Positions 14,636 to 49,974 of a stretch of 60,855 bases of DNA are shown here, in pieces. Location: assembly GCA_044375625.1 (NCBI GenBank), contig JBILMH010000005.1:1-60855 (forward strand). Reading direction: 5' to 3'. Numbering within the stretch: position 1 is the first letter of the stretch; the number at the start of each line of letters is the position of its first letter. Source of the DNA: Alphaproteobacteria bacterium (GTDB lineage Bacteria; Pseudomonadota; Alphaproteobacteria; CAISOG01). Below the pieces are notes generated by a model. The model did not search any database and had not been told where the DNA came from. It was given only the letters and a program-made list of their open reading frames with translations. The position numbers were made by a program, and so were the translations under genes.

Positions 14636-14754
14636 TATAATCGTTTCAATTTAGAAGGCTACAGCATGCGAAATTTCGGTTGGGTGCATAAGCCCCGTAT
14701 CGCAGCCATCCTGTTCGTTGCAGCACTGCAGCCTTTTAAAGTGGAATGATTATA
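14636..14754. repeat. RPE/MITE-like palindromic element (short copy)
   Basis: Imperfect 25-bp terminal inverted repeats TATAATCGTTTCAATTTAGAAGGCT / AGCCTTTTAAAGTGGAATGATTATA. Confidence 0.8.
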
Positions 14755-14803: not shown

Positions 14804-14982
14804 TATAGTTGTTCCAATTTAGAAATATACAGCCTGCGAAAATGTTACGAGGTCGAGAAACGGAGCGGCTGGGCGCGCCATAGCGTAGCGACGGCGGGAG
14901 TGTACATGGACGTACATGAGCACCGTATCGCAGAGATCGTGACATTTGCAGCACTGGAGATTTTTAAAGTGGAATGACTATA
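14804..14982. repeat. RPE/MITE-like palindromic element with an internal ~30-bp insertion
   Basis: Nearly identical to 43547-43694 apart from extra CTGGGCGCGCCATAGCGTAGCGACGGCGGG; TATA ends. Confidence 0.85.
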
Positions 14983-15002
14983 ATTTTTTGAGATAAAACC
15001 CT

Positions 15003-15338
15003 ATGCCCGATTCACCCACCGCCACTCAGCCGCAGCCAGCCAGCCGTCAACAGCGAATCCACGCCACCCTGCACGCTGCCTTTGCCCCCAGCCATTTGGA
15101 ACTGATCGACGAATCGGCGCAACATGCGGGGCATCAGGGGGTTAGGGAGGCTGGCCATGATGGGGGCGAAAGCCATTTTGCCCTGCGCATCGCCGCCGCC
15201 AGCCTGCAAAACCTATCCCGCCTGGAACAGCATCGCCGCATCAACCAGGCCGTCGCGGCCGAGTTTGCCAGCGGCCTGCACGCCCTGCGCATCACCGTGT
15301 TGCGGGATGAAAAACCGTCTACTACCATCAACCCTTAG
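15003..15338 (+). CDS. bolA: BolA family protein
   Basis: DESAQHAGH, GESHF, HRRIN, GLHALRI. Confidence 0.9.
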   Translation: MPDSPTATQPQPASRQQRIHATLHAAFAPSHLELIDESAQHAGHQGVREAGHDGGESHFALRIAAASLQNLSRLEQHRRINQAVAAEFASGLHALRITVLRDEKPSTTINP

Positions 15339-15351
15339 GAAATAATCGCCG

Positions 15352-16911
15352 ATGTTATCCAGCAAGATTGATCTGAATCCTGATTTTCAACAGGCCATTG
15401 ACCTGATGGAACATGGCCGCCAAAGCCTGTTCATTACGGGTAAGGCGGGCACCGGAAAATCAACCTTGCTGTCTTATTTCTGTGCCAACACGACAAAAGA
15501 ACCAGTGGTGTTGGCACCGACGGGGGTGGCCGCACTGAATGTTAAGGGGCAAACGATTCACAAATTCTTTGGATTCTCCATTGATGTGACCCGCGAAAAA
15601 ATTGAGGCGGGCGAATTTAAGCCCAAAAGCGCCAAGCTTTACAAAAAACTGGCGCTGATTGTTATCGATGAAGTGTCGATGTTGCGCGCCGATTTGTTGG
15701 ACTGCATCGATATGTTTTTGCGGCTTTATGGCCCCGAAGCTAAGCAGCCTTTTGGTGGGGTCAAGATGATTTTTATTGGCGATCTTTACCAACTGCCCCC
15801 CGTGGTTTCGCCCGCTGAGCGGGAAATGTTTTCCACCACCTACCAAACCCCCTATTTCTTCAGCGCCCACGCCCTGAAACATCTTGATCTTGAGTTGATC
15901 GAGCTGGAAAAAGTCTATCGCCAAAAGGATCCCGCCTTTGTTGAGCTGTTGAATCGCATTCGCAACAATTCTGTTGAAGATGACGATATTGTTCAGTTAA
16001 ACCAACGGTTTCAGCCCAACTACACCGCGCCCGAAAAGGTCTTTACGATTCATCTGACCACCACCAACCAACGGGCGGATGAAATCAACGACGCGCATTT
16101 GGATGGATTAACAGGAAAGATGCATCACGCCTCCGCCGGCATAAAGGGTGACTTTGGCAAAGAATACTACCCTACCGCGACCGATTTACGCTTTAAGGCG
16201 GGGTCACAAATCATGATGGTCAGCAATGATCAAAGTCGTCGTTGGGTTAATGGCAGCATCGGTGTCATCGAATCCCTGCAAAAAGATGAGGATGGATACC
16301 CCTGTTTATCGGTACGGTTGCAGGGGCAGGATGAGGCGGTAACGGTGTATCCCTTTACCTGGGAAATTTACCGCTTTGCTGTTGAGGGTGGCAAGATTGT
16401 TTCGGAACCCATGGGCAGCTTTACGCAGTTCCCCTTTCGCTTGGCCTGGGCGGTGACCATTCACAAAAGCCAGGGCAAAACCTTTGACCATGTGGTGATT
16501 GACCTTGGCCGCGGCACCTTTGTTGCGGGTCAATTGTATGTCGCGCTAAGCCGTTGCACCTCCTTTGAGGGGATTGTGTTGAAAACCCCAATCCGCAAGC
16601 AACATATTCGTACCGACTTTCGGATCTATAAATTTCTAACGGGCTATCATTATCGCAAGTCAGAGGCCGCCCTATCCCTGCAAGACAAGGTAAAATTGAT
16701 TGGCCAGGCGATTGCAGAAGGCAAAAACTTGGGGCTAACCTATCTTAAAGCCAACGATACCAAGTCGGAACGGGTGGTGACCCCCCTGACCGTTGGCAAA
16801 GAAACCTATAAGGGCGCGGAGTATTTGGGCGTGAAGGCCTATTGCACCAAACGCCATGAGGAACGGATGTTTCGGGTCGATAGAATCCTGACCATGCAGC
16901 TGCTGTCCTGA
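15352..16911 (+). CDS. Pif1-like SF1B helicase with C-terminal WYL domain
   Basis: GKAGTGKS, APTGVAA, DEVSM, GDLYQLPPV, TIHKSQG, YVALSR; tail Y...SERVVTP...AYCTKRHEERMFRVDRI. Confidence 0.88.
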   Translation: MLSSKIDLNPDFQQAIDLMEHGRQSLFITGKAGTGKSTLLSYFCANTTKEPVVLAPTGVAALNVKGQTIHKFFGFSIDVTREKIEAGEFKPKSAKLYKKLALIVIDEVSMLRADLLDCIDMFLRLYGPEAKQPFGGVKMIFIGDLYQLPPVVSPAEREMFSTTYQTPYFFSAHALKHLDLELIELEKVYRQKDPAFVELLNRIRNNSVEDDDIVQLNQRFQPNYTAPEKVFTIHLTTTNQRADEINDAHLDGLTGKMHHASAGIKGDFGKEYYPTATDLRFKAGSQIMMVSNDQSRRWVNGSIGVIESLQKDEDGYPCLSVRLQGQDEAVTVYPFTWEIYRFAVEGGKIVSEPMGSFTQFPFRLAWAVTIHKSQGKTFDHVVIDLGRGTFVAGQLYVALSRCTSFEGIVLKTPIRKQHIRTDFRIYKFLTGYHYRKSEAALSLQDKVKLIGQAIAEGKNLGLTYLKANDTKSERVVTPLTVGKETYKGAEYLGVKAYCTKRHEERMFRVDRILTMQLLS

Positions 16912-17008: not shown

Positions 17009-17096
17009 GGAGAGGTGGCCGAGTGGTCGATGGCGCACGCCTGGAAAGTGTGTATACCGAAAGGTATCGCGGGTTCGAATCCCGCTCTCTCCTCCA
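17009..17096 (+). tRNA. tRNA-Ser(GGA)
   Basis: Acceptor GGAGAGG/TCTCTCC, anticodon arm CACGC-CTGGAAA-GTGTG, long variable arm, encoded CCA. Confidence 0.97.
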
Positions 17097-17157: not shown

Positions 17158-17499
17158 TTAAAAATCCAGCTGGGTTTCATCAATGCCAAAAGCCTGCGCG
17201 ATTCTTTGGCGGCTGGATTTGCGGATGGTTTTTTTGCTCTCAAGCTGGGCATAGGATCCCTGGGTAATGCCCATGCGGGTGGCAACATCGGTTTGGGTAA
17301 GCTCAAGATACTCCCGCCAGGCACGGGCAGCCGACCAATCATGCGCCAGCGCCCTATCCACCACCTCAAGCGGGATGGCGGGCTCCGCCCTAGGCTTGTT
17401 ATGAATCAACGCTTGGTATTCGGCAAAGGGCAACACGGCAAAGGCAGGCTGGCCAGCGTTGTCACGCAGAATTTGTACAGTATCAGTAAGTGTGTTCAT
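17158..17499 (-). CDS. XRE-family HTH antitoxin (HigA-like)
   Basis: RAWREYLELTQTDVATRMGITQGSYAQLE; ATG 17499 overlaps the toxin 3' end. Confidence 0.85.
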   Translation of the reverse strand: MNTLTDTVQILRDNAGQPAFAVLPFAEYQALIHNKPRAEPAIPLEVVDRALAHDWSAARAWREYLELTQTDVATRMGITQGSYAQLESKKTIRKSSRQRIAQAFGIDETQLDF

Positions 17500-17737
17500 C
17501 ACGTTTCTTAACCTCCTCGATTGAGACGATGCGAACAACACCGTCAAAATTGAAAAAAACTCGAAAATTACCAACGCGCAGACGGTACTGATAGTCGTGA
17601 TTGCTAAGGGCTTTGACGTTGATGCAGTTGGGCATGTCAGCAAGGCTGTAGCACGCCGCAACAATGGCTTTACTGTCTTCGCCCTGCAACTTACGCAACT
17701 GTTTGGCGGCCTTGCGGGTAATCTCGACCTTGTTCAT
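17483..17737 (-). CDS. RelE/ParE-family toxin
   Basis: 84 aa; AAKQLRKL, VKAL, YRLRVGNFRVFF; lies upstream of the antitoxin. Confidence 0.88.
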   Translation of the reverse strand: MNKVEITRKAAKQLRKLQGEDSKAIVAACYSLADMPNCINVKALSNHDYQYRLRVGNFRVFFNFDGVVRIVSIEEVKKRDEHTY

Positions 17738-17819: not shown

Positions 17820-17858
17820 TCTATACCTCAGAGTCTATACCTCAGAGTCTATACCTCA
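17820..17858. repeat. 14-bp tandem repeat (about 2.8 copies) over the hisD stop codon
   Basis: TCTATACCTCAGAG repeated twice plus a partial third copy. Confidence 0.9.
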
Positions 17859-19153
17859 AATTTTGGGGCGCGGCATTCGACGGCGCGGGCGTGCGCCTCT
17901 AACCCCTCTAACCGTGCCAGGGCGGCAATTTCCCGTGCCAACTGGCCTGGTAAGGTTGAAGGCAAGGATTGGGTGTATGCCGCCGCGCCATGATCGGTGA
18001 TAAAGGTTTTGGGCTTTAGAAAATTGCTGACCGACAGGCCAGCATGGAAGCGCCCCGACCCGTTGGTGGGCAGGGTGTGGTTGGGGCCCAGCCCATAGTC
18101 GCCCAACACTTCGGCGGCGCGGGCACCGACAAAAATACCGCCATATTGGGTGCATTGCTGCCCCCAATGCGATGGGTTTTCGGTCATGATTTGCAGATGT
18201 TCTGGCGCCAATTGGTTGGCCAGCTGCACCGCCTGTTCCAAACTAAGCTGTACCATGGCACCCTGGGACAATGCCGCGCGCGCGGTTGATTGATTCGGCT
18301 GCGGCAGGGTGGGCAGCTGGGCGGCCAGGGCATCTTGCACGCTGGCCAACAAAGCGGACGATGGCGTCAATAGGGTGACAATCGCTTCGGTATCATGTTC
18401 GGCCTGCGCCAACAAATCGGCGGCGATCCAGGCGGGATTGGCACTGTCATCGGCAATAATCAGCAATTCGGATGGACCCGCCAGAAAATCGATGCCGCGC
18501 TGATTGGCGACCATTTGCTTGGCCGCCGCCACCCATTGATTGCCTGGGCCAACAATCATGTCACAGGGGTCAATCAGGCCGCCACCAAAGGCCAGGGTGG
18601 CAATCGCCTGCGCCCCGCCAATCGCCAACACCGCATGCGCGCCCGCAATCGCCGCCGCCGCCAACATCAGGGGGGCGGGGTTGGGCGAGGCCAAGGTAAT
18701 CTGCCGCACCCCCGCAACCTGGGCGGGAATGACCGTCATCAACACGCTGGACACCAGGGGATAGCGCCCGCCCGGCGCATAGCACCCAACCCGTTCAATC
18801 GGGATGTGGCGCACCCCCATGCTTAGCCCTTCTGCGCCAGCGGGCATGTCAAAATCCTGATACAGCTGGCGTTGGCGGGCGGCAAAGCCGCGAATCCGTT
18901 CCGCCGCGGTTTGCAACAGCTGGCGCGGCTCATCGGCCAGATTGGCCAGGGCGGCTTCACAGGCGGCGCGATCATACAGCATCGGCTGTCCCGCAACCCA
19001 TCCATCCCATTGCGCGGCATAGTTTTCGACCGCGGATCGGCCGTGGCGACGAACATCCTCAAGAATCTGTTGCGCCCCCGCCAACACTTCAGCGGGCAGC
19101 GGGTTTGCGGCGCGTGCCAGCAGGCTGGCGGCATCCTTGATAGGCATGATCAT
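17849..19153 (-). CDS. hisD: Histidinol dehydrogenase
   Basis: GCYAPGG, GPGNQWV, AGPSE, DLLAQAEHD, APEHL, GPNHTLPT, EGLEAHA; ATGA overlap with the upstream fusion gene. Confidence 0.96.
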   Translation of the reverse strand: MIMPIKDAASLLARAANPLPAEVLAGAQQILEDVRRHGRSAVENYAAQWDGWVAGQPMLYDRAACEAALANLADEPRQLLQTAAERIRGFAARQRQLYQDFDMPAGAEGLSMGVRHIPIERVGCYAPGGRYPLVSSVLMTVIPAQVAGVRQITLASPNPAPLMLAAAAIAGAHAVLAIGGAQAIATLAFGGGLIDPCDMIVGPGNQWVAAAKQMVANQRGIDFLAGPSELLIIADDSANPAWIAADLLAQAEHDTEAIVTLLTPSSALLASVQDALAAQLPTLPQPNQSTARAALSQGAMVQLSLEQAVQLANQLAPEHLQIMTENPSHWGQQCTQYGGIFVGARAAEVLGDYGLGPNHTLPTNGSGRFHAGLSVSNFLKPKTFITDHGAAAYTQSLPSTLPGQLAREIAALARLEGLEAHARAVECRAPKFEV

Positions 19154-20430
19154 GATGTGGCCTTTCTGTCGCCCCCACGGCGGGCAATTTTGCGGGAACG
19201 GCTGTTCAGTTCGTCCCAAACAGCTGACCAGGGAATGTGCTGTTGCGCCAGCTTGACGGCGGCAAAATACAAAACATCGGCGGTTTCGGCGACAATCTCC
19301 TGCACGGAATTGGCCATCGCCAGCTCGCCCCCCTCCTCCTGAATCTTGGCGTTTAACAGCCCCGGTTCGGCCAGCAATCGTTGGGTATAGGATTGCGCAT
19401 CCTCCGCCTGCATCGCACGATCTATCCGCTGCGCCAGCGCGCTGATACCGCCATTTGTGCCAAAGTCGGCCTCAAAACAGCTGGCTGTTCCCAAATGGCA
19501 AAAGCCGTCGCCCAGTTGTTGCACCGTGAATTGCAGGGCGTCGCGATCGCAATCCACCGCAATCCGCAACAGTTTCTGGCGGGCGCCTGAGGTTTCCCCC
19601 TTACGCCACAGGCCGCCGCGTGATCGGGAATGGTAAATGCCCGCCCCCTCAGCCAACGCCGCCTGCAAGCTTTCGCCATTGGAATAGACCAATCCCAGCG
19701 CCTGGTGGTTGCTATCCACCACCACAGTTGGCCACAGGCCGTCGGCACGGTCGGAAATCATCATGGCCGCCAAACAATCGGCGATGGTCAATTTGCCCGT
19801 ATACAGCGCCATCCCAACCTGGGCATCCACCCCCATCCTGTCCAATTCGGCAATCTGTTGCGCGGTGGTAATGCCGCCCGCCATGGTCAGCTTAACGGTT
19901 GAGGCCGCCGCCAAAATCGGTGCCACCGCCGCGGTGTCAAAGCCGCCCATGGTGCCTTCGATGTCGATGTTGGTTACCAAAAAGCCGCCAACCCAATCGC
20001 GCAGCTCAGCCATGCGGGTCAGGCCAGAGGTTTCCTGCACCGTTTTCCACCCCTCAACCGCTACCTTGCCGCCACGCATATCCACCGCGGCCATCACCCG
20101 ATCCCTGGGCAATTGCGACAAAATGGCCGGCTCAGCCTTAGTGCCCAAAATGACCTTCACCGCCCCCGCGTTCAGCCAATCGCTGGCCGCCTCAAGGCTG
20201 CGAATCCCGCCACCAACGCGACAGGGGGCATGACGGCACAGGGTTTTGATCAGATCGCGGTTATCGCCCTGCCCCATGGCGGCATCCAGATCAATCACCG
20301 CCACCTCACCCGTCATGCCAAATTGTTTGGCCAGGGCAATCGGATCCTCAGCCGCCTGCAACGCCATTTTTTCACCCTGTACCAGCTGAACGGCTTTGCC
20401 ATTCATGATATCTATTGATGGGATAATCAC
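19150..20430 (-). CDS. hisA/hisIE: HisA-HisI-HisE fusion protein
   Basis: N-terminal IIPSID..GKAVQL...VGGGIR barrel; middle SRSR..LWRKGETSG, DCDRD, FCH..C; C-terminal SYTQRL...KIQEE..E...ETADVLYF. Confidence 0.9.
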   Translation of the reverse strand: MIIPSIDIMNGKAVQLVQGEKMALQAAEDPIALAKQFGMTGEVAVIDLDAAMGQGDNRDLIKTLCRHAPCRVGGGIRSLEAASDWLNAGAVKVILGTKAEPAILSQLPRDRVMAAVDMRGGKVAVEGWKTVQETSGLTRMAELRDWVGGFLVTNIDIEGTMGGFDTAAVAPILAAASTVKLTMAGGITTAQQIAELDRMGVDAQVGMALYTGKLTIADCLAAMMISDRADGLWPTVVVDSNHQALGLVYSNGESLQAALAEGAGIYHSRSRGGLWRKGETSGARQKLLRIAVDCDRDALQFTVQQLGDGFCHLGTASCFEADFGTNGGISALAQRIDRAMQAEDAQSYTQRLLAEPGLLNAKIQEEGGELAMANSVQEIVAETADVLYFAAVKLAQQHIPWSAVWDELNSRSRKIARRGGDRKATS

Positions 20431-21167
20431 GGGCGAATCTCCTGACCGGCTTGCGAAAGATAGGTTTTGACGTCGGGGATGCTAAGGATGCCATCATGGA
20501 ACAGGCTAGCGGCCAAAACCGCGCTGGCGCCTGCCTGCAACGCGGCCAGGAAGTCGGGCAACTGCCCCGCCCCGCCTGAGGCGATGACGGGAATGGCAAC
20601 GCTGCCGCTGACCGCCCGCAACAAATCGGTGTCATAGCCGCTTTGCTGACCATCCCGATTCATGCTGGTCAACAGGATTTCGCCCGCCCCCAACTGTTCG
20701 GCCTGTTTAGCCCAGGCGGTTACGTCCCAGGCGGTGGCGTCATGGCCTGCGCGGGTAAAGACCTTGCCGTCTTTCGCGTCAATGGCCACCACCGTGCATT
20801 GACGGCCATAAGCGTTCGCCACCTGTGTAATCAAATCGGGCTGCGCCAGGGCGGCAGAATTCAGCGAGACTTTGTCCGCCCCGACATTCAGCAAGGCCTG
20901 CACATCGGCCAAACTGCGCACACCCCCCCCAACCGTCAGGGGGATCGACAACACCTGTCGAACATCATGCACCAGCGACAGGGTGGCCATGCGGTTTTCA
21001 ACCGTGGCCGTGATATCTAAGATGACCAGCTCATCCGCGCCCTGATCCTGATACAGCTTGGCCGCGGCCACGGGATCGCCCGCATCGCGCAAATCTTTGA
21101 ACTGCACGCCTTTGACAATGCGGCCATTTTTCACATCCAAACAGGGAATAATGCGGCGGGTTAGCAT
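20427..21167 (-). CDS. hisF: Imidazole glycerol phosphate synthase cyclase subunit
   Basis: RIIPCLDV, GADELV.LDI, TVGGGVR, GEILLTSMNRDG, ASGGAG. Confidence 0.97.
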   Translation of the reverse strand: MLTRRIIPCLDVKNGRIVKGVQFKDLRDAGDPVAAAKLYQDQGADELVILDITATVENRMATLSLVHDVRQVLSIPLTVGGGVRSLADVQALLNVGADKVSLNSAALAQPDLITQVANAYGRQCTVVAIDAKDGKVFTRAGHDATAWDVTAWAKQAEQLGAGEILLTSMNRDGQQSGYDTDLLRAVSGSVAIPVIASGGAGQLPDFLAALQAGASAVLAASLFHDGILSIPDVKTYLSQAGQEIRP

Positions 21168-21781
21168 GAAGCGCCCTCCAACCACTGGCTAATTAGGCCT
21201 TCGCCCGCCTTGCCCGACAACTCTGGGTGAAATTGACAGGCCATCACCCCCTGCCGCCTTAGCATGGCCACATAGGGGTAGGCGGCGTCATCGCCATAGG
21301 CAAAGGTGGATAGCTGCCAGCCATCATCGGCCTGCAAGCTTTCCAATCCCACAGCGGGCAGGGCATAGGAATTGGCGAAATAGACATAGTCCTTTTCAGG
21401 CGACATCAGGTTCCAACCCATTTGCGGCACCGGCAGTTTTTGGGTGTTGAGCTTTTTGACGGTTGCGTCTATCACGCCCAACCCCGCCACCCCCGGGCTT
21501 TCATCACTGCCCGCGCACAGAATTTGCATGCCAAGGCAGATCATAAGGGTTTTCTGCCCCGACAAAATGCGGGCACGCAGGGCATCCGTCCAGCCGCGAT
21601 CCGTTAGCGTTTGCATCGCCACGCCAAAGGTGCCCACCCCCGGCACCGCCAGGGCGGGCGCATCGGCAATATCCTGAGCGGTTTCAGCATAGGTTACCGT
21701 GTATCCCAGCCGCTTTAGGCAGGCCGCCATTGAGGCAATGTTGGCAACCCCGCTCGACAAAATACAGACATCGCGGCTCAT
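21161..21781 (-). CDS. hisH: Imidazole glycerol phosphate synthase glutaminase subunit
   Basis: PGVG, ICLGMQ, PQMGWN, QFHPELSG. Confidence 0.94.
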   Translation of the reverse strand: MSRDVCILSSGVANIASMAACLKRLGYTVTYAETAQDIADAPALAVPGVGTFGVAMQTLTDRGWTDALRARILSGQKTLMICLGMQILCAGSDESPGVAGLGVIDATVKKLNTQKLPVPQMGWNLMSPEKDYVYFANSYALPAVGLESLQADDGWQLSTFAYGDDAAYPYVAMLRRQGVMACQFHPELSGKAGEGLISQWLEGASC

Positions 21782-22359
21782 AAAACGCCCTTGGTGCTGA
21801 CGCTGCCATTAACGGTGACGGCGGCCGCCTGGCGAAAGGCCAACGCAAAAGCCTTAAAGGCCGATTCAACCTTATGATGGTCATTCTCCCCACGTAGCAC
21901 GTCAAGATGCAGGGTCAGGCAGGCTTCAGCCGCCAACGTCCGAAAAAAATGGCTGATGTTTTCACAGGCGACATCGCCGATATTCTCACGGTTCAGATTC
22001 AGCGAAATGATGGCGGTCACCCGCGTCGCCAGATCGATAACGGCGCGGCTTAAGGCCTCATCCAACGGGGCATAGGCCGACCCAAAGCGCTGAATCGATT
22101 GCCGCTTGTCCAACGCCTGGCCAACCGCCTTGCCCAGCACGATGGCACAATCCTCAACCGTATGGTGATCATCCACCTGCAGATCGCCTGTCGCCTTCAG
22201 CTGCAAATCCCAGCCAGCATGTTTGGCCAAACATTCCAACATGTGATCAAAAAACCCCAGACCGGTGGCTATCTCACACTGCCCCTGGCCATCCAGATTC
22301 AGGGTCAGGGTGATGGCCGTCTCACGGGTTTGACGGGTTACGGTGGCGTGACGGGTCAT
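21778..22359 (-). CDS. hisB: Imidazoleglycerol-phosphate dehydratase
   Basis: TGLGFFDHML, DDHHTVED, NDHHKVE, STKGVL. Confidence 0.97.
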   Translation of the reverse strand: MTRHATVTRQTRETAITLTLNLDGQGQCEIATGLGFFDHMLECLAKHAGWDLQLKATGDLQVDDHHTVEDCAIVLGKAVGQALDKRQSIQRFGSAYAPLDEALSRAVIDLATRVTAIISLNLNRENIGDVACENISHFFRTLAAEACLTLHLDVLRGENDHHKVESAFKAFALAFRQAAAVTVNGSVSTKGVL

Positions 22360-23393
22360 GGGGAAACCTTTGTTATAGCGTTCATCAGGGTGGCCAGATC
22401 CTGTTCATTTAAGGGTACACCAATGCGGACACAATGGGCGATATGGGGATCATTGGGAAAGCAACGCACCGAAATCCCGCGATCCCCCAAGGATTCGAAC
22501 ATCCTTTGGGCTTGTTCCGCATTTTTGCAGGCAAAGAATACAAAATTTGCCTGGGATGGCCAAACAGAAAAACCAAGCTTGGTCAGGGCGGATTGCAACA
22601 GGGTGCGGTTGGCCTTAATCGCCGCGATGGCCGTATCAACCTGATGCTTTGCGGCCAAAAGCTTTAACCCCTGGTTGATGCTGGGCTGGGAAATGCCATA
22701 GGGTTGCGCCACCTTTTGCATGGCCAGCAGCAGATCGGCATGGCGGCTAAGGGCGTAACCCAACCGCAATCCCGCCGCGCCATAAGCCTTGCTGAAACTT
22801 TGCACCACCACCGTGTTGGGCATGGCCAGCACGGCATCGGTGATATCCTGATCGCTATAGGCCATGTACACCGCATCCAGCACGATTAAGGCCTGGGGGG
22901 CATGATCACGAATGCGGGCGATGACATCAATGGGCACCACCTGCCCCGTTGGATTGTTGGGGGAGGTGACCAGAACAATTCGGGTTTTGGCATCAATGCT
23001 GTCAACGATAGCCTGTTCGGGAAAGGCGGGATCAATCCATGGCACGCAACGCATATCACCGCCCGCCATCGCCACATAGCGCTGAATCATCGGAAAGGTT
23101 GGCACGGCGGTTACCAAATTCCCACCTTCCTCCATCATCGCCAGCATGATTTGCAACAGGGCATCATCCCCCCCCGCGGTGGGGTGAACCATGGCCATGG
23201 GCAGCCCTAGATTGTTGGCCAACGCATCCCGCCAGCCATCAATTTTGGGATAGGAGCCGGCGCAATCACCCAGGATCGCTTGGAAATCAGGAATCACATC
23301 GCGCAGATCCAGCTGGGGGGGACGTTTAGGCCGTGGCGGGGCATAGGGCGCACCAAGGCGGGCAACCCGTTCGGCAAATTGCAACGTCATCAA
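22356..23393 (-). CDS. hisC: Histidinol-phosphate aminotransferase
   Basis: SPNNPTG, DAVY, SFSKAYGAAGLRLGY, SQANF; operon context. Confidence 0.9.
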   Translation of the reverse strand: MMTLQFAERVARLGAPYAPPRPKRPPQLDLRDVIPDFQAILGDCAGSYPKIDGWRDALANNLGLPMAMVHPTAGGDDALLQIMLAMMEEGGNLVTAVPTFPMIQRYVAMAGGDMRCVPWIDPAFPEQAIVDSIDAKTRIVLVTSPNNPTGQVVPIDVIARIRDHAPQALIVLDAVYMAYSDQDITDAVLAMPNTVVVQSFSKAYGAAGLRLGYALSRHADLLLAMQKVAQPYGISQPSINQGLKLLAAKHQVDTAIAAIKANRTLLQSALTKLGFSVWPSQANFVFFACKNAEQAQRMFESLGDRGISVRCFPNDPHIAHCVRIGVPLNEQDLATLMNAITKVSP

Positions 23394-24256
23394 AGCACCA
23401 CTTTGGCCAAATTGGTGATGATAATGTCACAGGCGCCCGCGTTCTTAAGGGCAGGGATCAGGGCAATCACTTGCTTTTTTTCCACCACCGATTTGATGGC
23501 ATAGCCCTGATCGCCCAACAGGTTGGCAACCGTCGGTTGCTTCATCGCTGGGAAAATTTGCATCACCTCAGGCAATTTTTCGGGCGGCACATTGGCTTCG
23601 ACCATGACGCGGCGGCGCCCCTCCAACACCGATTGCAACACCAAACAAAAATCCTGAATCTTTTTGGCTTTTTGGGGGTCTTGCATGGCCTTACGGCTGG
23701 CATACAGGCGGGTGGAGGACTGAAAAATCTTTTCCACAATCGTCAACCCATTGGCGTCCAGGGTTGCCCCCGTTGAGGTGATGTCGAGAATATAGTCGGC
23801 ATCCTCACTAGGAAACACCTCGGTCGAGCCAAAGGATCGGACAAAGGTATCTTGGCGCCCCCCTTGTTGCTGCCAATCGGCGGTCAGCTTAGCATACTCA
23901 CTGGCAACCGTCAGCTGGCGGGGGGGCAGCGCGCCATCCTGAAGCAATTTGTTGGGGGCGGCCACCACCAACCATACGGGATCCAACGCTGTATCCAACA
24001 GCTCCACCAGATTGGCGCCCAATTCCTTAACCCAATCCGCGCCGGCAAAGCCCAAATCGCGCGTGCCCATATCCAGCATTTCAATGATGTTTTGCGGCTT
24101 TAGCATTTTGGCCTCCATCGCGGCGCCGCTGATGGTTGGGCGATAGGCGCGGCTGGCCGTCCGCACGATGACGCCGGCATCCGCCAACAGCCGTTCGACG
24201 CCATCGAACATCCGCCCCTTTGGCAGTGCTAAGCGTAAGGATTGCTCTGAACTCAT
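23390..24256 (-). CDS. hisG: ATP phosphoribosyltransferase, long form
   Basis: LALPKGR, DLGFAG.DWV.E, GSTEV, DITSTGATL, C-terminal regulatory domain LKNAGACDII; ATG follows GAGGGGG. Confidence 0.95.
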   Translation of the reverse strand: MSSEQSLRLALPKGRMFDGVERLLADAGVIVRTASRAYRPTISGAAMEAKMLKPQNIIEMLDMGTRDLGFAGADWVKELGANLVELLDTALDPVWLVVAAPNKLLQDGALPPRQLTVASEYAKLTADWQQQGGRQDTFVRSFGSTEVFPSEDADYILDITSTGATLDANGLTIVEKIFQSSTRLYASRKAMQDPQKAKKIQDFCLVLQSVLEGRRRVMVEANVPPEKLPEVMQIFPAMKQPTVANLLGDQGYAIKSVVEKKQVIALIPALKNAGACDIIITNLAKVVL

Positions 24257-24259
24257 GGT

Positions 24260-24393
24260 TATTTCCCCCTCAAATGTTGGTGCCGTCAAAACCTTGCTGG
24301 CGGGGAATATCTGCAAAAACCATGAAACGCCTAAACAGAGTCACCGCCATATCAAAAGCCCTGGCGGCGGTTGCGTAAAAATTAAAGCCGCCA
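24260..24393 (-). promoter_or_regulatory. Putative his attenuator with alternative pairings and an anti-SD segment
   Basis: mRNA segments UGGCGGC (24393-24387), GCCGCCA (24368-24362), UGGCGG (24349-24344) and UAUUCCCCGCCA (24309-24298), the last complementary to the SD region GGGGGAAAUA; no U-tract terminator seen. Confidence 0.6.
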
Positions 24394-24822: not shown

Positions 24823-25593
24823 ATGGCACAAGATCATCAGAACAATTTTTGGAGATACAAAGCAGAAGTTGGATTTTGTGGCGCTTTATTAGCACTATCA
24901 GCAGCCGCATGCAGTGGTAACCATCAAACTTCCCCACAACCACCTTCAGCAAACCCTTGCCCGAACATTTCACCAAAAGTTTTTTTAAATGATCGTGCAC
25001 TTAGAGCTGACAGTACAAACAGTTTTTTAAAAAGACGTTTGCCAGAATACAGCGTAAGATTGATCGCCGAAGAAAAACGTACAGGTGCGATTTTGGAAAG
25101 TGGAGATAGTACATGCACATACATCGTAGACCGCGCAGCCCCATTTATTGTTAACGTAACTTATAGTGACGCTGCATCGTCCAACCTGTTTACCCACACA
25201 TACGATTATGATGGAGAATTTTTAAATAGTGGTAACCATAAAATTGCCCCACAACCACCTTCAGAAAACCTTTGCCCGAGTATTCTCCCAAGAGTTTTTT
25301 CAGACATAGCTTCTAAGGGTGTAACACAATCTATTAATCAAAAAATCGATGGAATTGCTTTAAGAAAATTTCCAAGACATGAATCTGGAGCAATAGGCAG
25401 GGCTTTCGACAACAGAATATATACAGGTGCGATTTTGAACGGTGGAGATGTTCAATGCACATACCTCGTAGACCGCGCAGCCCCATTTATTGTTAACGTA
25501 ACTTATCGTGGCGCTGCATCGTCCAAACCCTTACAGTTTATCCGCACATACGATTATAATGGAAAATTTTCAGGAGAACGACCTACCAGATAA
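24823..25593 (+). CDS. AT-rich hypothetical lipoprotein with an internal domain duplication
   Basis: GGAGG RBS, lipobox-like AAAC, two repeats SGNH..PQPPS.N.CP...TGAIL..GD..CTY.VDRAAPFIVNVTY...TYDY.G.F. Confidence 0.75.
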   Translation: MAQDHQNNFWRYKAEVGFCGALLALSAAACSGNHQTSPQPPSANPCPNISPKVFLNDRALRADSTNSFLKRRLPEYSVRLIAEEKRTGAILESGDSTCTYIVDRAAPFIVNVTYSDAASSNLFTHTYDYDGEFLNSGNHKIAPQPPSENLCPSILPRVFSDIASKGVTQSINQKIDGIALRKFPRHESGAIGRAFDNRIYTGAILNGGDVQCTYLVDRAAPFIVNVTYRGAASSKPLQFIRTYDYNGKFSGERPTR

Positions 25594-25911
25594 CATGAAA
25601 AATTTATCAAGACAGCATGCCCCCCCCTCAGGGATGAATCCCGCACCTCAGGTTAACGTATCAGCCGTGAAGTCTGCCGATCCTGTCCAATCGGCAGATA
25701 TCAGCGACCGCATCCGCGGATAAGCAGGTCACCCCCTCACCGAACTTTGCCTTGCTTTTTCGTGTCGGAATTCGCCACACTTACCTTGCCAAAAACCATC
25801 AGCTGTGGCAGGGTTGCGACCTGGTTGGTTGGTCAGCCCTTTTCTAAGGAATCTGTTTTTCAGCAGATATCCTTAAAAGTTGTGGCATAAACTTCCACCA
25901 AAGTCTTGCAG

Positions 25912-25986
25912 GCCGCTATAGCTCAGTGGTAGAGCGCACCCTTGGTAAGGGTGAGGTCGACAGTTCAATCCTGTCTAGCGGCACCA
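25912..25986 (+). tRNA. tRNA-Thr(GGT)
   Basis: Acceptor GCCGCTA/TAGCGGC, anticodon arm CACCC-TTGGTAA-GGGTG, encoded CCA. Confidence 0.97.
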
Positions 25987-26091
25987 GCCTTTATCCCACC
26001 CCGCCCCCAACATATATCTTGACGTAGGGCGCTGGTGGCCTGCAAATCATAAAGTCCCCCTTTTTTTCACACCGGGTGTTTGCCTGTTGTC

Positions 26092-28173
26092 ATGCTGAAA
26101 ATCTTTGAATCTTTTGGTCTGGAATCTCTTAGCCAGCTGCCCCCCGAGTTGTTGACCCGGTTCGCAACCATACTGGCGATGATCGCTGCGGCAATTGCCC
26201 TGCTGGCCAGCCTGCTTGTCGGCCTTATGTACCGCCGTCACGGCCAACGGCTGATGCATCTGGCTGGGCAACAGCAGGCCAAGCGGATTGAGGATTTGCA
26301 GGCGATGTTGAACGCCATTCCGATTCCGCTGTGGCGGCGGGATGGTGCCGGGCACATCATCACCTGCAACCAATTCTATGCCGACCAGGTTGGGTTAACG
26401 GCAGAGGCGGTGGTGGCCAACCAAACCGAATTGGGTGCCAGCGTGATCAGCGATGGGGGATTGGGGCTGCACCGCCGCGCCATGCAGGTTGGCCAGTCGC
26501 AAAGCGAAAGCCATCATATCATTGTTAAGGGGCAACGGCGGCTGTTGGAATTTCACGAAATACCGTTAGCGGAGCAGGCGGGGGCGGGGCAGGCGGAAAT
26601 GGGTGCGGGCGGCATTGGTTTTGCCCTGGACTATACCGCGCTGGAGGATACGCAGCAGCAGTTGGCGCGGCAATGGGATGCCTATGCCGATATCTTAGAA
26701 AGCCTGCGCATCGGGATTGTCATGTTTAACCGCAGCCAGCGGGTAATCTATTTCAACACCGCCTTTGCAAAGCTTTGGCCATTGGATCCGCAATGGCTGG
26801 CCAGCAGCCCCAGCTTTGGTGAGGTGTTGGAGGAGTTGCGCCTGCGCCGCCGCCTGCCCGAAGTATCGGATTTTCCCGCCTACAAAAAACAACAGCTCAA
26901 ATTGTTCAGCACCCTGTTGGCGCGCCATGAGGAATTGTTGCATCTGCCCGATGATACCACCCTGCGCATGACGGTGGTGCCACACCCCCTGGGCGGGTTG
27001 TGCTTTACCTATGATGATGTCAGCAACACCCTGGCGTTGGAGCGGTCATTCAACACCATGTTGGCGGTGCAGGGCGAAACCCTTAGCAATCTCTATGAGG
27101 GGGTGGCGGTGCATGCCAGCGATGGTCGGCTACGCCTGTTTAACACCGCCTTTGCCAAATTGTGGGAATTTGACCCCGATTGGTTGGGCAGCCAACCGCA
27201 TTTGGGCGAGATCGCTAAACGCCGCCAGGATCAATTTCCCTCACAGGAAGCTTGGCAACAGTTTGAGCAGCAAACCCTTCATGCCGCTGAGGCACGCATT
27301 CCCGCGCATGGCACCATCGAACGGCGGGATGGTAAGATTTATGAATATCGCCTGGTACCCCTGCCCGATGGCAGCTTTTTGATCAGCTATGTGGATATCA
27401 CCGACCAGTTGCAGGTTGAACGCGCCCTGCGCGAACGGGGGGAAGCGTTGGAAAATGCCGATCGCCTGAAAAGCGACTTTTTGGCCAGCATGTCTTATGA
27501 ATTGCGCACCCCGCTGAACAGCATTGCCGGCTTTAACGAACTGTTGCGGCTGGAACTGTTTGGCCCGCTTAACCCCAAACAGCTGGAATATGCCGAAGGT
27601 ATCCACCAGGCCAGCCAGCATCTGACCACCCTGATCAACGACATGCTGGATCTGGCCAGTTTTGAGGCGGGGATTTTTGCCCTAAACCGCAACCAATTGG
27701 ATGTGTCCGCCTGGTTGGCCAACCAAATCAGCCTGGCACAGCCAACCGCGATGCAAAAATCGGTGCGGCTGATTCTGAACATGGATGAGGAGCTAGGCAA
27801 TATCCAGGCCGATGCCCAACGCCTACGCCAAGCGTTCTACAACCTGTTGAACCATGCGATTAAGGGAACGCCCGATGGCGGTATGGTCAGCTTAAAAGCG
27901 GGCTTAACCGAACAACAGGGTGCCGCCTATCTGGAAATCCTGCTGCAAGATGGGGCGAAAGGCACCCTGATGCAGGAGCAGGAGCAGGCCTACAAAACCG
28001 CCTGGGCACAATCCACTCCCGCCAACAGCCGCCGCAGCAGTGGTGGTGGTGGCGACATCGGGTTATCGCTGGCCAAAACCATCATCGAAGCCCATGACGG
28101 CCAGCTGCAGCTAAGTGGCGATCCGACGGTTGGCGTTACGGTGCGCTGCCTGCTGCCTGTGGCGGGAACTTAG
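26092..28173 (+). CDS. divL: DivL-like multi-PAS pseudo-histidine kinase
   Basis: N-terminal TM, several PAS repeats, H-box SYELRTPL with Tyr replacing His, degenerate ATP-binding domain. Confidence 0.8.
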   Translation: MLKIFESFGLESLSQLPPELLTRFATILAMIAAAIALLASLLVGLMYRRHGQRLMHLAGQQQAKRIEDLQAMLNAIPIPLWRRDGAGHIITCNQFYADQVGLTAEAVVANQTELGASVISDGGLGLHRRAMQVGQSQSESHHIIVKGQRRLLEFHEIPLAEQAGAGQAEMGAGGIGFALDYTALEDTQQQLARQWDAYADILESLRIGIVMFNRSQRVIYFNTAFAKLWPLDPQWLASSPSFGEVLEELRLRRRLPEVSDFPAYKKQQLKLFSTLLARHEELLHLPDDTTLRMTVVPHPLGGLCFTYDDVSNTLALERSFNTMLAVQGETLSNLYEGVAVHASDGRLRLFNTAFAKLWEFDPDWLGSQPHLGEIAKRRQDQFPSQEAWQQFEQQTLHAAEARIPAHGTIERRDGKIYEYRLVPLPDGSFLISYVDITDQLQVERALRERGEALENADRLKSDFLASMSYELRTPLNSIAGFNELLRLELFGPLNPKQLEYAEGIHQASQHLTTLINDMLDLASFEAGIFALNRNQLDVSAWLANQISLAQPTAMQKSVRLILNMDEELGNIQADAQRLRQAFYNLLNHAIKGTPDGGMVSLKAGLTEQQGAAYLEILLQDGAKGTLMQEQEQAYKTAWAQSTPANSRRSSGGGGDIGLSLAKTIIEAHDGQLQLSGDPTVGVTVRCLLPVAGT

Positions 28174-28257
28174 CGCGCTGGCGTCGATACCACCGCACCA
28201 TCCGCTGCGCCTAGCTCAGACCAATACGCGCCAGACAGTGCCTGGTTGCGGTATAAA

Positions 28258-28698
28258 TTATAGCCAATCACCTGTGATCGACATTACAGCACACAAAGAA
28301 ACGAAGAGTGCAAAGTATATGTTTACAGCAAAAAAGATAATTGTAGGTATTCTATACCCTCTATTTTTAAAACAGCAATAAATGCCGTAAATTAAAAATA
28401 CAGCCAAAACAAACACAACAAAATATACAACAAAGTTCGGCCAGTCAGATGGATTTTTTTGATCCCTAAAAACACCTCCCCATAATCCTATGATAACCCA
28501 AAATGCTGGCATCAAGGCGATAGATTTTCTTACATAGAAATCTTTGATGAAGCGATATGGTAAGAATGCCAATAGTACAGGCAATATTATTGCAAACGGC
28601 ATTATAGGGTGAAGTAAGTTGCTGGCCGACATAGAAATAAACCAACATAAAGACATGTAGGTCGCAGCTATTTCTTGAAACAAATTAATATCACCCAT
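28258..28698 (-). CDS. Hypothetical AT-rich multi-pass membrane protein
   Basis: 146 aa with four to five hydrophobic segments; composition far from the flanks. Confidence 0.6.
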   Translation of the reverse strand: MGDINLFQEIAATYMSLCWFISMSASNLLHPIMPFAIILPVLLAFLPYRFIKDFYVRKSIALMPAFWVIIGLWGGVFRDQKNPSDWPNFVVYFVVFVLAVFLIYGIYCCFKNRGYRIPTIIFFAVNIYFALFVSLCAVMSITGDWL

Positions 28699-28764
28699 CC
28701 GTCAATTACATTTTTTTATCACTGATTTTTAGGCCAAATTGCTTTGCCCGGTTACTGAACCCAA

Positions 28765-29211
28765 TCATTGCTGCAGGGGGGCGCTGTAGTCACCACCGAT
28801 ATAGGCGCGCATGTGATTCAGATCGATGGCCAACGCCTGATTCACCAAACTGTAAATCTGGCGAATCGACAAAATGTCAATCACCCTGCCGTTATCCACC
28901 ACCAGCAAATGATGCAGGCGATGGCGTTCCAACAACCCCAAAGCATGATCGATGGTATCATTGGGCGAGGCCGCCACCACAATCGGGCTCATCACGGTGC
29001 AAACCATGGTTTTGCGCGGATCCAAATTGCGATCCAAAACATTGGTGGCCAAATCATGTTCGCTGAACAGACCCGCCACCTCAGAACCATTAACCACCAC
29101 CAGCATGGAAACATGGTTTTTGGTCATGCGATGGCAGGCGGTATAGACGCTATCACCGACATCGATGGAAACCACGTTTTTTTCCTGCCGCAGCAAATTT
29201 TTTACTAACAT
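28765..29211 (-). CDS. CBS domain pair protein
   Basis: GLFSEHDL, VMSP, HHLLVVDNG.VIDILSI; GGAGG RBS. Confidence 0.85.
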   Translation of the reverse strand: MLVKNLLRQEKNVVSIDVGDSVYTACHRMTKNHVSMLVVVNGSEVAGLFSEHDLATNVLDRNLDPRKTMVCTVMSPIVVAASPNDTIDHALGLLERHRLHHLLVVDNGRVIDILSIRQIYSLVNQALAIDLNHMRAYIGGDYSAPLQQ

Positions 29212-29370
29212 TGTTTTAGCCCCTCCTATTGGCTAACCGGCGAAAGAAAACTCCATTTCAAGCAAAGCTAAGAAGAATACGGTGCATCGCCGTTAATGCA
29301 TCCAATCCTTCCAACCAAACACCCCCTTTCCGCCAAACCAAATTTACGAACCAAAGGATTTTGAACTGTT

Positions 29371-29817
29371 TTAGGCCGTCACCCCGTACACATCACCGTT
29401 CACATAGGATCGTATCCGCCGCATACCATCCTCCAGCTCGACACGCATGCATTCGTACAATTCCTGTATCGACAGCACCGCGATAATTTCGCCATTGACC
29501 TCAACGGGCAAATGCCGCACCCCATATTCCCGCATAACCGACAAAGCCTTATCGGTGGTGTCCAGGGGCGAAATGGTTGCCGTCACCGGCACCATAACCC
29601 GCCGCAGCTGGGTTGTTTCGGGATCCATTTTCTGGGCGACCACCCTGACCAAATCATGCTCCGTGAAATAGCCGACGATCGTGTTGTTTTCGGTAACAAA
29701 GACGATGTTGGTATCACGGCTTGCCAAAATGCTACAGGCGGCCTGGACAGTGGTTATGGCCGATACCGAAATAACGCCCATCTGCTTAAAAACACTGCTT
29801 AGAACCATATGTTCCAT
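29371..29817 (-). CDS. CBS domain pair protein (tandem paralog)
   Basis: GYFTEHDL, RHLPV; same 148-aa length as its neighbour. Confidence 0.85.
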   Translation of the reverse strand: MEHMVLSSVFKQMGVISVSAITTVQAACSILASRDTNIVFVTENNTIVGYFTEHDLVRVVAQKMDPETTQLRRVMVPVTATISPLDTTDKALSVMREYGVRHLPVEVNGEIIAVLSIQELYECMRVELEDGMRRIRSYVNGDVYGVTA

Positions 29818-43521: not shown

Positions 43522-43546
43522 TCGCAAAGGCAGGGCGTTTTTACCC

Positions 43547-43694
43547 TATAGTCGTTTCAATTTAGAAATATCCAGCCTGCGAAAATGTTACGAGGTCGAG
43601 AAACGGAGCGGAGTGTACACAGAAGTACATGAGCACCGTATCGCAGAGATCGTGATATTTGCAGCACTGGAGATTTCTAAAGTGGAATGACTAT
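43547..43694. repeat. RPE/MITE-like palindromic element (148 bp)
   Basis: TATAGTCGTTTCAATTTAGAAAT...ATTTCTAAAGTGGAATGACTAT with internal GTAC hairpin; lies between convergent genes. Confidence 0.88.
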
Positions 43695-49827: not shown

Positions 49828-49974
49828 ATAGGTGATTCAATCCAAAAAGCAGCAACTAACGAAAATGACAATCGAGCGAGAAACAGAACGGCGTGTACTT
49901 TTGCGTACATAAGCATTGTATCACAGACTGAGCGCATTTGCAGCACTGGTGCTTTCTAACGAGGAATACCTATA
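49827..49974. repeat. Degenerate RPE/MITE-like element (148 bp)
   Basis: TATAGGT...ACCTATA ends; shares CGAGAAAC, GTGTAC..GTACAT and ATTTGCAGCACTGG with 43547-43694. Confidence 0.7.

Follow-up and report, generated by a model that had tools for sequence, protein, structure and literature searches.

A HisA-HisI-HisE fusion protein in an alphaproteobacterial histidine operon and its probable relation to the front part of fungal HIS4

The window analysed here, a stretch of 60,855 nucleotides of contig JBILMH010000005.1 from an alphaproteobacterial draft genome (assembly GCA_044375625.1), contains a gene in which hisA, hisI and hisE are joined in a single reading frame. Its product is a predicted trifunctional enzyme encoded in an apparently mobile operon, and it is probable, in our judgement strongly so, that the protein family to which it belongs gave eukaryotes their HisA-HisIE block, that the HisA barrel decayed in fungi, and that the HisD part of HIS4 was obtained separately. 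With a little less assurance, though still as a likely account, the N-terminus of HIS4 is read as a decayed HisA scaffold from a bacterial-type fusion, joined to a HisD of another lineage, so that bacteria and protists on the one hand, and fungi on the other, would have arrived at the A-IE-D layout independently. The gene and its parts are the following.

19150..20430, minus strand: hisA-hisI-hisE fusion gene, 426 amino acids (aa), GTG start, TGA stop
19765..20430, minus strand: HisA barrel domain (isomerase of phosphoribosylformimino-aminoimidazole carboxamide ribonucleotide, ProFAR), residues 1-222, PF00977
19456..19764, minus strand: HisI domain (phosphoribosyl-AMP, PR-AMP, cyclohydrolase), residues 223-325, PF01502 and NF000768
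19150..19455, minus strand: HisE domain (phosphoribosyl-ATP, PR-ATP, pyrophosphohydrolase), residues 326-426 with the stop included, PF01503
19150..19153, minus strand: ATGA overlap, formed by the hisD ATG (19153-19151) and the fusion TGA (19152-19150)

The Pfam families PF00977 His_biosynth (residues 1-215, E 2.6e-43), PF01502 PRA-CH (residues 247-320, E 3.8e-26) and PF01503 PRA-PH (residues 331-411, E 1.1e-14) stand in that order within one uninterrupted open reading frame (ORF), which is the arrangement that defines the fusion family, and the NCBIfam model NF000768 matches residues 223-324. An earlier note on this DNA had described just such a 426-aa ORF, and also the ATGA overlap with hisD at 19153-19150; both descriptions were found to be correct, the junction reading aca tca TGA in the fusion frame and ATG atc atg cct in the hisD frame. 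At the other end the hisF stop and the fusion GTG start overlap as GTGA (20430-20427), and the N-terminus MIIPSID aligns with MIIPALD of E. coli HisA starting at residue 1. The HisA domain is intact, unlike the degenerate, Pfam-invisible N-terminal domain of the fungal HIS4 type, and hisD lies in a different frame from the fusion, unlike the single-frame layout of both fungal HIS4 and the bacterial four-domain proteins.

Canonical HisA and HisIE of E. coli share folds and chemistry with the window protein but are only 32% and 33% identical to it, respectively. The HisA domain matches E. coli HisA at D7, D117 (E. coli D129), GGGIR 73-77 and GG 185-186, and the position of E. coli D176 is occupied by Glu158, a replacement by Glu that holds across the whole family; D7, D129 and D176 are the residues which we take, from the S. 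enterica and T. maritima literature, to be catalytic in HisA. In an alignment of 111 family proteins, the window protein among them, D7, D117, E158, G73-G75, R77, G185 and G186 of HisA, D293, C294, D295, D297, C311, H312 and C318 of HisI, and E365, E366, E369, E382 and D385 of HisE were invariant in 111 of 111 sequences. This invariance, which extends to all catalytic and ligand positions examined, indicates that each of the three active sites is under purifying selection. The fusion is in all likelihood real and functional, its enzyme activity being predicted from sequence: HisE would convert PR-ATP to PR-AMP, HisI PR-AMP to ProFAR, and HisA ProFAR to its phosphoribulosyl isomer PRFAR, three consecutive steps, and we infer that the trifunctional protein may benefit from channelling.

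The HisA-HisI-HisE fusion is not rare. Of 8000 candidates scored in a word-indexed protein search, 7698 reached E<=0.001; an exhaustive search of cluster representatives gave 433 clusters at E<=1e-30, and species-representative genomes encode at least 530 relatives (530 out of 600 stretches considered). All but one of the 120 best relatives (119) carry these three Pfam domains and are 53-99% identical to the window protein across 95% or more of its length, the odd one out being the 327-aa fragment P0009; a public 426-aa protein, P0001, is 99% identical to the window fusion. The best 80 loci come from metagenome-assembled genomes (MAGs) named Phycisphaerae/Planctomycetota, Myxococcota, Gemmatimonadota/Longimicrobiales, Alphaproteobacteria, Acidobacteriota, Krumholzibacteria, Methylomirabilota and others, and the closest among the matches listed, at 96% identity, belongs to a record titled 'uncultured Holosporaceae bacterium'. 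In 41 of these 80 loci the gene order is exactly G C B H F A~IE D, as in the window, and in 70 hisD directly follows the fusion.

The fusion-hisD junction was a 4-nt overlap in 37 of the 80 loci, an 8-nt overlap in nine and an in-frame fusion in five, ten loci being not assessable and the remainder showing small gaps or other arrangements. Therefore the ATGA junction is the family norm and the four-domain form a recurrent variant; on a 112-row HisIE tree, described below, the 15 four-domain rows require 11 changes. Full HisA-I-E-D fusions thus exist in bacteria, as the search with residues 223-426 also showed, and their HisA, HisIE and HisD are of the same lineages as the window genes, with the difference that HisD stands in the same frame, whereas the window hisD is a separate ORF with a 4-nt overlap. 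Compared with the bacterial trifunctional proteins, to which it is 53-69% identical from end to end, the window protein has the same three domains, domain order, operon order and invariant residues, and no essential difference was found beyond its occurrence in a small genome whose sister species carries ordinary genes. The family is large and under-named: NCBI names its members mostly 'phosphoribosyl-ATP diphosphatase', and the four-domain examples P0121-P0134 (Phycisphaerales, Myxococcota and Gemmatimonadetes MAGs) 'histidinol dehydrogenase'. The window gene is an ordinary member, and a view of it as a special intermediate is not supported; in the 64-row tree below, other bacterial proteins stand nearer to the fungal clade. 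As a separate observation, P0341, P0291 and P0319 (850-911 aa) carry the HisA-HisIE block at the C-terminus, with about 450-500 other residues ahead, and represent further fusion orders.

Trifunctional fusions of this kind are already in print. Proteins combining ProFAR isomerase, PRA-CH and PRA-PH appear in the available text of the sequence-network analysis of Witek et al. 2021 (PMC8102479), and HisA/F-HisIE fusions in four archaeal MAGs are noted in the accessible part of PMC11237513; in the available text of a 2023 review by the Fani group, the fused his genes named are hisD, N, B, H, F, I and E, and a hisA-hisIE fusion is absent from the list. In the text available of Fani et al. 2007 (PMC1963479), a stretch of 160-220 residues at the N-terminus of fungal HIS4 is described as of unknown function, lacking a conserved domain and lacking PSI-BLAST relatives, and no prokaryotic HIS4-like protein is reported there. 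The origin of this front domain from HisA appears to be a reading that is absent from the literature searched, a coverage that left most subscription journals outside.

A link with HIS4 was seen in the HisIE part. A search with residues 223-426 against longer proteins returned, interspersed among bacterial four-domain proteins, named fungal His4 ('histidine biosynthesis trifunctional proteins') that were 45-51% identical, with E values of about 1e-45 to 1e-47. BLASTP of the window protein gave 46-49% identity and 199 bits with the named His4 of Umbelopsis and Ogataea, against 90 bits with E. coli HisIE, while the scores of Ogataea His4 itself against solved structures were only 70 bits (Shigella HisIE), 50 (Medicago HISN2) and 43 (an archaeal HisI). 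The motifs DRADGLWPTVVVD..ALGLVYS and GFCHL..SCF and the tail RR.G..K are common to the window protein and both fungal proteins in these alignments. The alignment with E. coli HisIE (203 residues) is weaker there and stops at query residue 413, ahead of the RRGGDRK tail, in agreement with the earlier impression that these segments are fungal-like rather than proteobacterial. With a hidden Markov model (HMM) of the family, fungal HisIE scored 286 bits on average and canonical HisIE 120.

Phylogenetic analysis led to the same grouping. In the 112-row HisIE tree, rooted on 20 canonical proteobacterial HisIE, 25 of the 26 fungal-type rows formed a starred clade deep within the fusion family. In a careful 64-row tree, 12 fungal rows, three protist-like rows, P0097 and P0254 formed a starred clade (100/90) inside the bacterial family, where P0097, P0254 and the protist-like giants, like P0183, P0379 and P0367, are classed as 'protist' or 'fungal-type' by source tags (eukprot), architecture and tree position only. 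This eukaryote clade is set apart from the deeper bacterial lineages by starred branches of 98/90 and 100/97, and none of 200 bootstrap trees united the bacterial rows in a single group. The window protein fell into a separate starred clade with P0002, P0005, P0008 and P0017. The HisIE part therefore groups with the HisIE family of fungal His4 in both trees and not with ordinary proteobacterial HisIE, so that the grouping named as a refutation in the earlier note was not obtained. A protist-dwelling symbiont was considered as direct donor or recipient and is not supported, the window clade being sister to the large crown group and not to the eukaryote clade. According to the available text of Witek et al. 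2021 (PMC8102479), a sequence-similarity network derives fungal HIS4 from orders close to Myxococcales.

The homology of the His4 N-terminal extension to the HisA barrel of the family is supported by several lines of comparison. The family HMM found an intact HisA domain in 53 of 120 long proteins from the residues 223-426 search and not in the other 67. Umbelopsis His4 starts with the HisA-like MIIPAFD, some fungal-type proteins begin MIIP..D, and the fungal-type P0379 shows a collinear alignment over residues 1-423 of the window protein (34% identity, E 7e-60). In hhalign, a profile of 53 fungal-type N-termini matched the family HisA domain at 98.0% (E 2.3e-13); after trimming of 25 linker residues on both sides the value was 97.6% (E 3.4e-12, 157 columns, template 3-200 of 200), and in global mode with the trimmed profiles 98.6%. 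The controls gave 91.4% for canonical HisA (E 9e-7), 68% for HisF of the same operons (5e-5), 26% for canonical HisF and 0.1% for the HisIE region.

The predicted fold is in agreement with this result. AlphaFold2 modelled Umbelopsis His4 from a fungal-only alignment with a mean predicted local distance difference test score (pLDDT) of 84 and eight strand-helix units in residues 1-195. The full-length model returned only HisD, HisIE and other dehydrogenases in Foldseek and was uninformative for the N-terminal domain, which was therefore folded alone; with 13 fungal-type sequences the same eight units were obtained (pLDDT 84.3, predicted template modelling score 0.81). The top Foldseek match of this model was S. 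enterica HisA 5ahf (E 1.5e-5, TMq 0.67), and 14 of the first 20 rows were HisA structures, 13 of the 14 being variants of one S. enterica protein. VIA-align against 48,161 chains placed HisA 4gj1 first (Z 16.0, root mean square deviation 2.7 A, 179 of 199 aligned), with HisAp (14.9), HisF-LUCA (14.8) and yeast His6 (14.5) at lower ranks. The structural comparison suggested in the earlier note thus gave a predicted eight-unit barrel whose best matches are HisA. The fold alone allows the name 'phosphate-binding barrel' only, and it is the sequence profiles that allow 'HisA'; in the ESM Atlas no usable match was obtained for Umbelopsis His4 residues 1-190.

Across residues 1-199 of the 53-sequence fungal-type alignment only G62 and R87 are invariant, and the HisA signature residues are lost. 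Because the catalytic Asp and GGGIR are not conserved, the fungal barrel is most likely non-catalytic. Two further proteins of 360-364 aa, P0353 and P0361, start with MIIPLLD, have about 160 residues missed by the family HisA HMM followed by a family-type HisIE, and lack HisD; the decayed form of HisA may, from these two, occur also outside the HisD-fused fungal proteins.

The eukaryote-type giant proteins show a different state of the same block. P0243 and P0244 are HisA-I-E-D-HisC-HAD proteins and P0210 is HisA-I-E-HisG; all three have an intact family-type HisA (E 1e-79 to 1e-104), and in P0243 and P0244 HisD is also family-type in the HisD tree below. The available text of Rice et al. 2018 (PMC6029752) describes an Acanthamoeba heptafunctional (seven-domain) histidine protein, in which the order listed, HisF-HisA-HisI-HisE-HisD, equals that of the window operon, the comparison being one of description and not of sequence. 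P0243, P0244, P0210 and the Acanthamoeba protein are single eukaryote-type polypeptides of 777-1682 aa, whereas the window has an operon. The protist-like giants carry the whole family block, whereas fungal HIS4 is a HisA relic plus HisIE with a HisD of another lineage. HIS4 thus agrees with the window protein in HisIE subfamily, domain order and N-terminal barrel homology, and differs from it in the lost HisA signature residues and in a HisD that is fused and foreign, the window having an intact HisA and a separate hisD.

The HisD part weighs against a simple derivation of HIS4 from such a fusion. The window HisD is 34% identical to the HisD part of Umbelopsis His4 and 37% to E. coli HisD, and in phmmer it scored 256-395 bits with bacterial four-domain proteins, 248-325 with protist-like, 189-293 with canonical and 180-215 with fungal-type proteins. 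A 45-row HisD tree made by a quick method had two starred sides: the window, its genus, 14 four-domain proteins and three protist-like proteins on one (99), and 12 fungal-type rows together with three E. coli-type HisD rows on the other (100). Since fungal HisD groups with the E. coli type, His4 is not simply the window arrangement minus a frameshift, and its HisD was probably joined or replaced separately. The domain-by-domain trees proposed in the earlier note thus led to a split outcome, with HisIE beside fungal His4 and HisD apart; the idea of a bacterial relative of the fungal His4 lineage stands for the HisA-HisIE block, where trees, hhalign and fold agree, and fails for HisD. On the side of the predicted activities, the HisA domain (154.1 against 228.95 for TIGR00007) and the HisIE part (143.9 against 187 for NF002747) both remain below the equivalog cut-offs of the canonical families.

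The fungal barrel might also be unrelated, recruited from another triosephosphate isomerase-type (TIM) barrel protein, with the HisIE subfamily as the only common part. PF00977 was not found by Pfam in seven fungal-type His4 proteins even at E<=1, the family HisA HMM reached E<0.01 in only eight of the 67 long proteins lacking an intact HisA, and ribulose-phosphate epimerases follow HisA within about 1 Z unit (14.9 against 16.0), so that structure alone cannot separate the phosphate-binding barrels. Against this, the profile match is graded, falling from family HisA through canonical HisA and the two HisF controls to the unrelated HisIE region, and it is collinear over the entire domain; the HMM matches, of which the best was Steccherinum at 4.5e-8, are all in the same register. 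Together with the MIIP..D starts, the alignment of P0379 from residue 1 and the location of the barrel directly ahead of HisI as in the bacterial fusion, this makes an unrelated origin quite improbable. That the single ORF is an assembly or frameshift artefact joining separate hisA and hisIE can practically be dismissed: no support was found for it apart from the draft state of the 69-contig genome, and the same 426-codon gene occurs at 96% identity in two other genomes of the genus, in the nearly identical P0001, and in thousands of relatives with the same length and linker.

Transfer in the opposite direction, in which a HisA-HisIE(-HisD) fusion arose in eukaryotes and was acquired by bacteria including this genus, is a more serious objection, although we regard it as unlikely. 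The root branch of the HisIE tree is weak (42/51 in the 64-row tree, 85 in the Shimodaira-Hasegawa-like approximate likelihood ratio test, SH-aLRT, of the 112-row tree), the outgroup consists of 10-20 HisIE sequences from one phylum only, and the eukaryotic class labels have the restricted basis given above. Giant histidine proteins do exist in eukaryotes, as in the Acanthamoeba case. The closest named relative of the window, among the matches listed, carries the label of the Holosporaceae, which live inside protists. On the other hand, when the tree is rooted on the canonical outgroup, bacterial three-domain proteins make up several of the deep branches, the eukaryote clade is nested behind the three starred branches mentioned, the bacterial genes are packed into operons with 4-nt overlaps whose order is kept in many phyla, and the eukaryote clade has other nearest neighbours than the window clade. 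The nesting in the sequence trees favours the bacteria-to-eukaryote direction, but the narrow outgroup and the weak root branch leave it a probable direction only.

In the history preferred here, the fusion would be expressed from a translationally coupled operon, hisG-C-B-H-F-(A-I-E)-D, and the whole operon would be a horizontally mobile unit that kept its order across many bacterial phyla and, in the genus of the window, replaced the ordinary hisA, hisF, hisIE and hisD that a sister species retains. The fusion family would have given rise to the eukaryotic HisA-HisIE block, some protist giant proteins retaining all domains intact. In fungi the HisA barrel would have lost catalysis and turned into the front domain of HIS4, with HisI and HisE remaining active, and the HisD of HIS4 would have joined or been replaced separately from another lineage. 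The barrel may have been retained as a scaffold once a separate isomerase, which in yeast is HIS6, had taken over.

The replacement within the genus could be followed in related genomes. The full-length fusion was present in five of 41 (G000, G001, G003, G030 and G035), of which G000, G001 and G003 belong to the same genus (96%) and G030 (52%) and G035 (54%) are two of 37 same-class genomes. G002, a 99% complete genome of the genus, carries canonical hisA, hisF and hisIE (209 aa) as separate consecutive genes, and its hisD on another contig is 39% identical to the window HisD; two different histidine gene sets thus coexist within one genus. Among all TIGR00069 matches in 37 phylum genomes the window HisD scores lowest, with 408 bits where the others reach 430-548, and the HisIE equivalog cut-off is passed by 20 of 151 phylum genomes, with the window HisIE below it. 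From this distribution, the canonical set of G002 and the two low scores, the operon is taken to be foreign to the lineage and to replace the native genes. In G002 (loci L046, G002:C27:1-6000, and L153) a PmbA/TldD gene follows hisA-hisF-hisIE.

The operon of the window comprises seven overlapping genes on the minus strand, hisG-C-B-H-F-(A-I-E)-D, all named by Pfam and NCBIfam. Those other than the fusion are listed below.

17849..19153, minus strand: hisD, histidinol dehydrogenase, 434 aa from ATG, PF00815 E 5.1e-127, TIGR00069 408 bits
20427..21185, minus strand: hisF, start at GTG 21185 or at the in-frame ATG 21167, Pfam and NCBIfam
21161..21781, minus strand: hisH, TIGR01855 135.9 bits, exceeding the cut-off of 105.4
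21778..22359, minus strand: hisB, imidazoleglycerol-phosphate (IGP) dehydratase only, phosphatase domain absent, PF00475 and NF002111
22356..23393, minus strand: hisC-like aminotransferase, PF00155, TIGR01141 199 bits, not reaching the cut-off of 276.55
23390..24316, minus strand: hisG, long form with C-terminal regulatory domain, PF01634 and PF08029

The host genome (1.61 Mb, 69 contigs, 97.5% complete) contains a single PRA-CH match, a single HisD match and two strong His_biosynth matches only, hisF and the fusion gene. Therefore the operon is the only histidine pathway of the organism. It is flanked by a tRNA-Ser (17009-17096) and a ParE/HTH pair on one side and by a tRNA-Thr (25912-25986) on the other. 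The idea of a genomic island was tried and dropped, as the GC content is not distinct, the flanks have no synteny to the same-genus G002 and an insertion site could not be defined. No integrase was seen among the ORFs scanned in 24823-29817, Rfam gave nothing beyond the two tRNAs, scans for promoters and terminators stayed at or below chance level, and no his leader was found upstream of hisG.

Some neighbouring features were recorded in addition. The tRNA-Ser is tRNA-Ser(gga); between it and the hisD end lies a ParE-family toxin ORF (17483-17737, minus strand, PF05016 E 7.7e-6), which overlaps an ORF of 168 aa (17158-17664, minus strand) whose C-terminal part is an HTH_3 domain. Beyond the tRNA, a PIF1-like helicase with a C-terminal WYL domain (15352-16911, plus strand) adjoins a BolA-like gene (15003-15338). 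A dispersed repeat of about 180 bp at 14804-14983 has another copy at 43538-43694 and partial copies at 14684-14754 and 49890-49974; it gave 41 matches in its own genome, of which about 23 span nearly the whole element with 76-98% identity, and at least 20 copies in G002 at 71-79% identity, and looks like an element of the miniature inverted-repeat transposable (MITE) type.

For the host, the fusion gene belongs to ordinary metabolism, where by its predicted activities it would be the sole route from PR-ATP to PRFAR, and with its exchange of a complete set of histidine genes the genus neatly illustrates horizontal transfer at the level of an operon. Yeast genetics has relied on HIS4 since the 1970s, and the fusion family, with the window gene as a well-preserved reference, would explain the origin of its long unassigned front domain. 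If this is true, HIS4 provides a clean case of decay from enzyme to pseudoenzyme within a multi-enzyme protein, and the split histories of HisIE and HisD mean that evolution can assemble one multi-enzyme layout on more than one occasion. Reading the HIS4 front domain as a dead HisA barrel would make the question open to concrete experiment in yeast.

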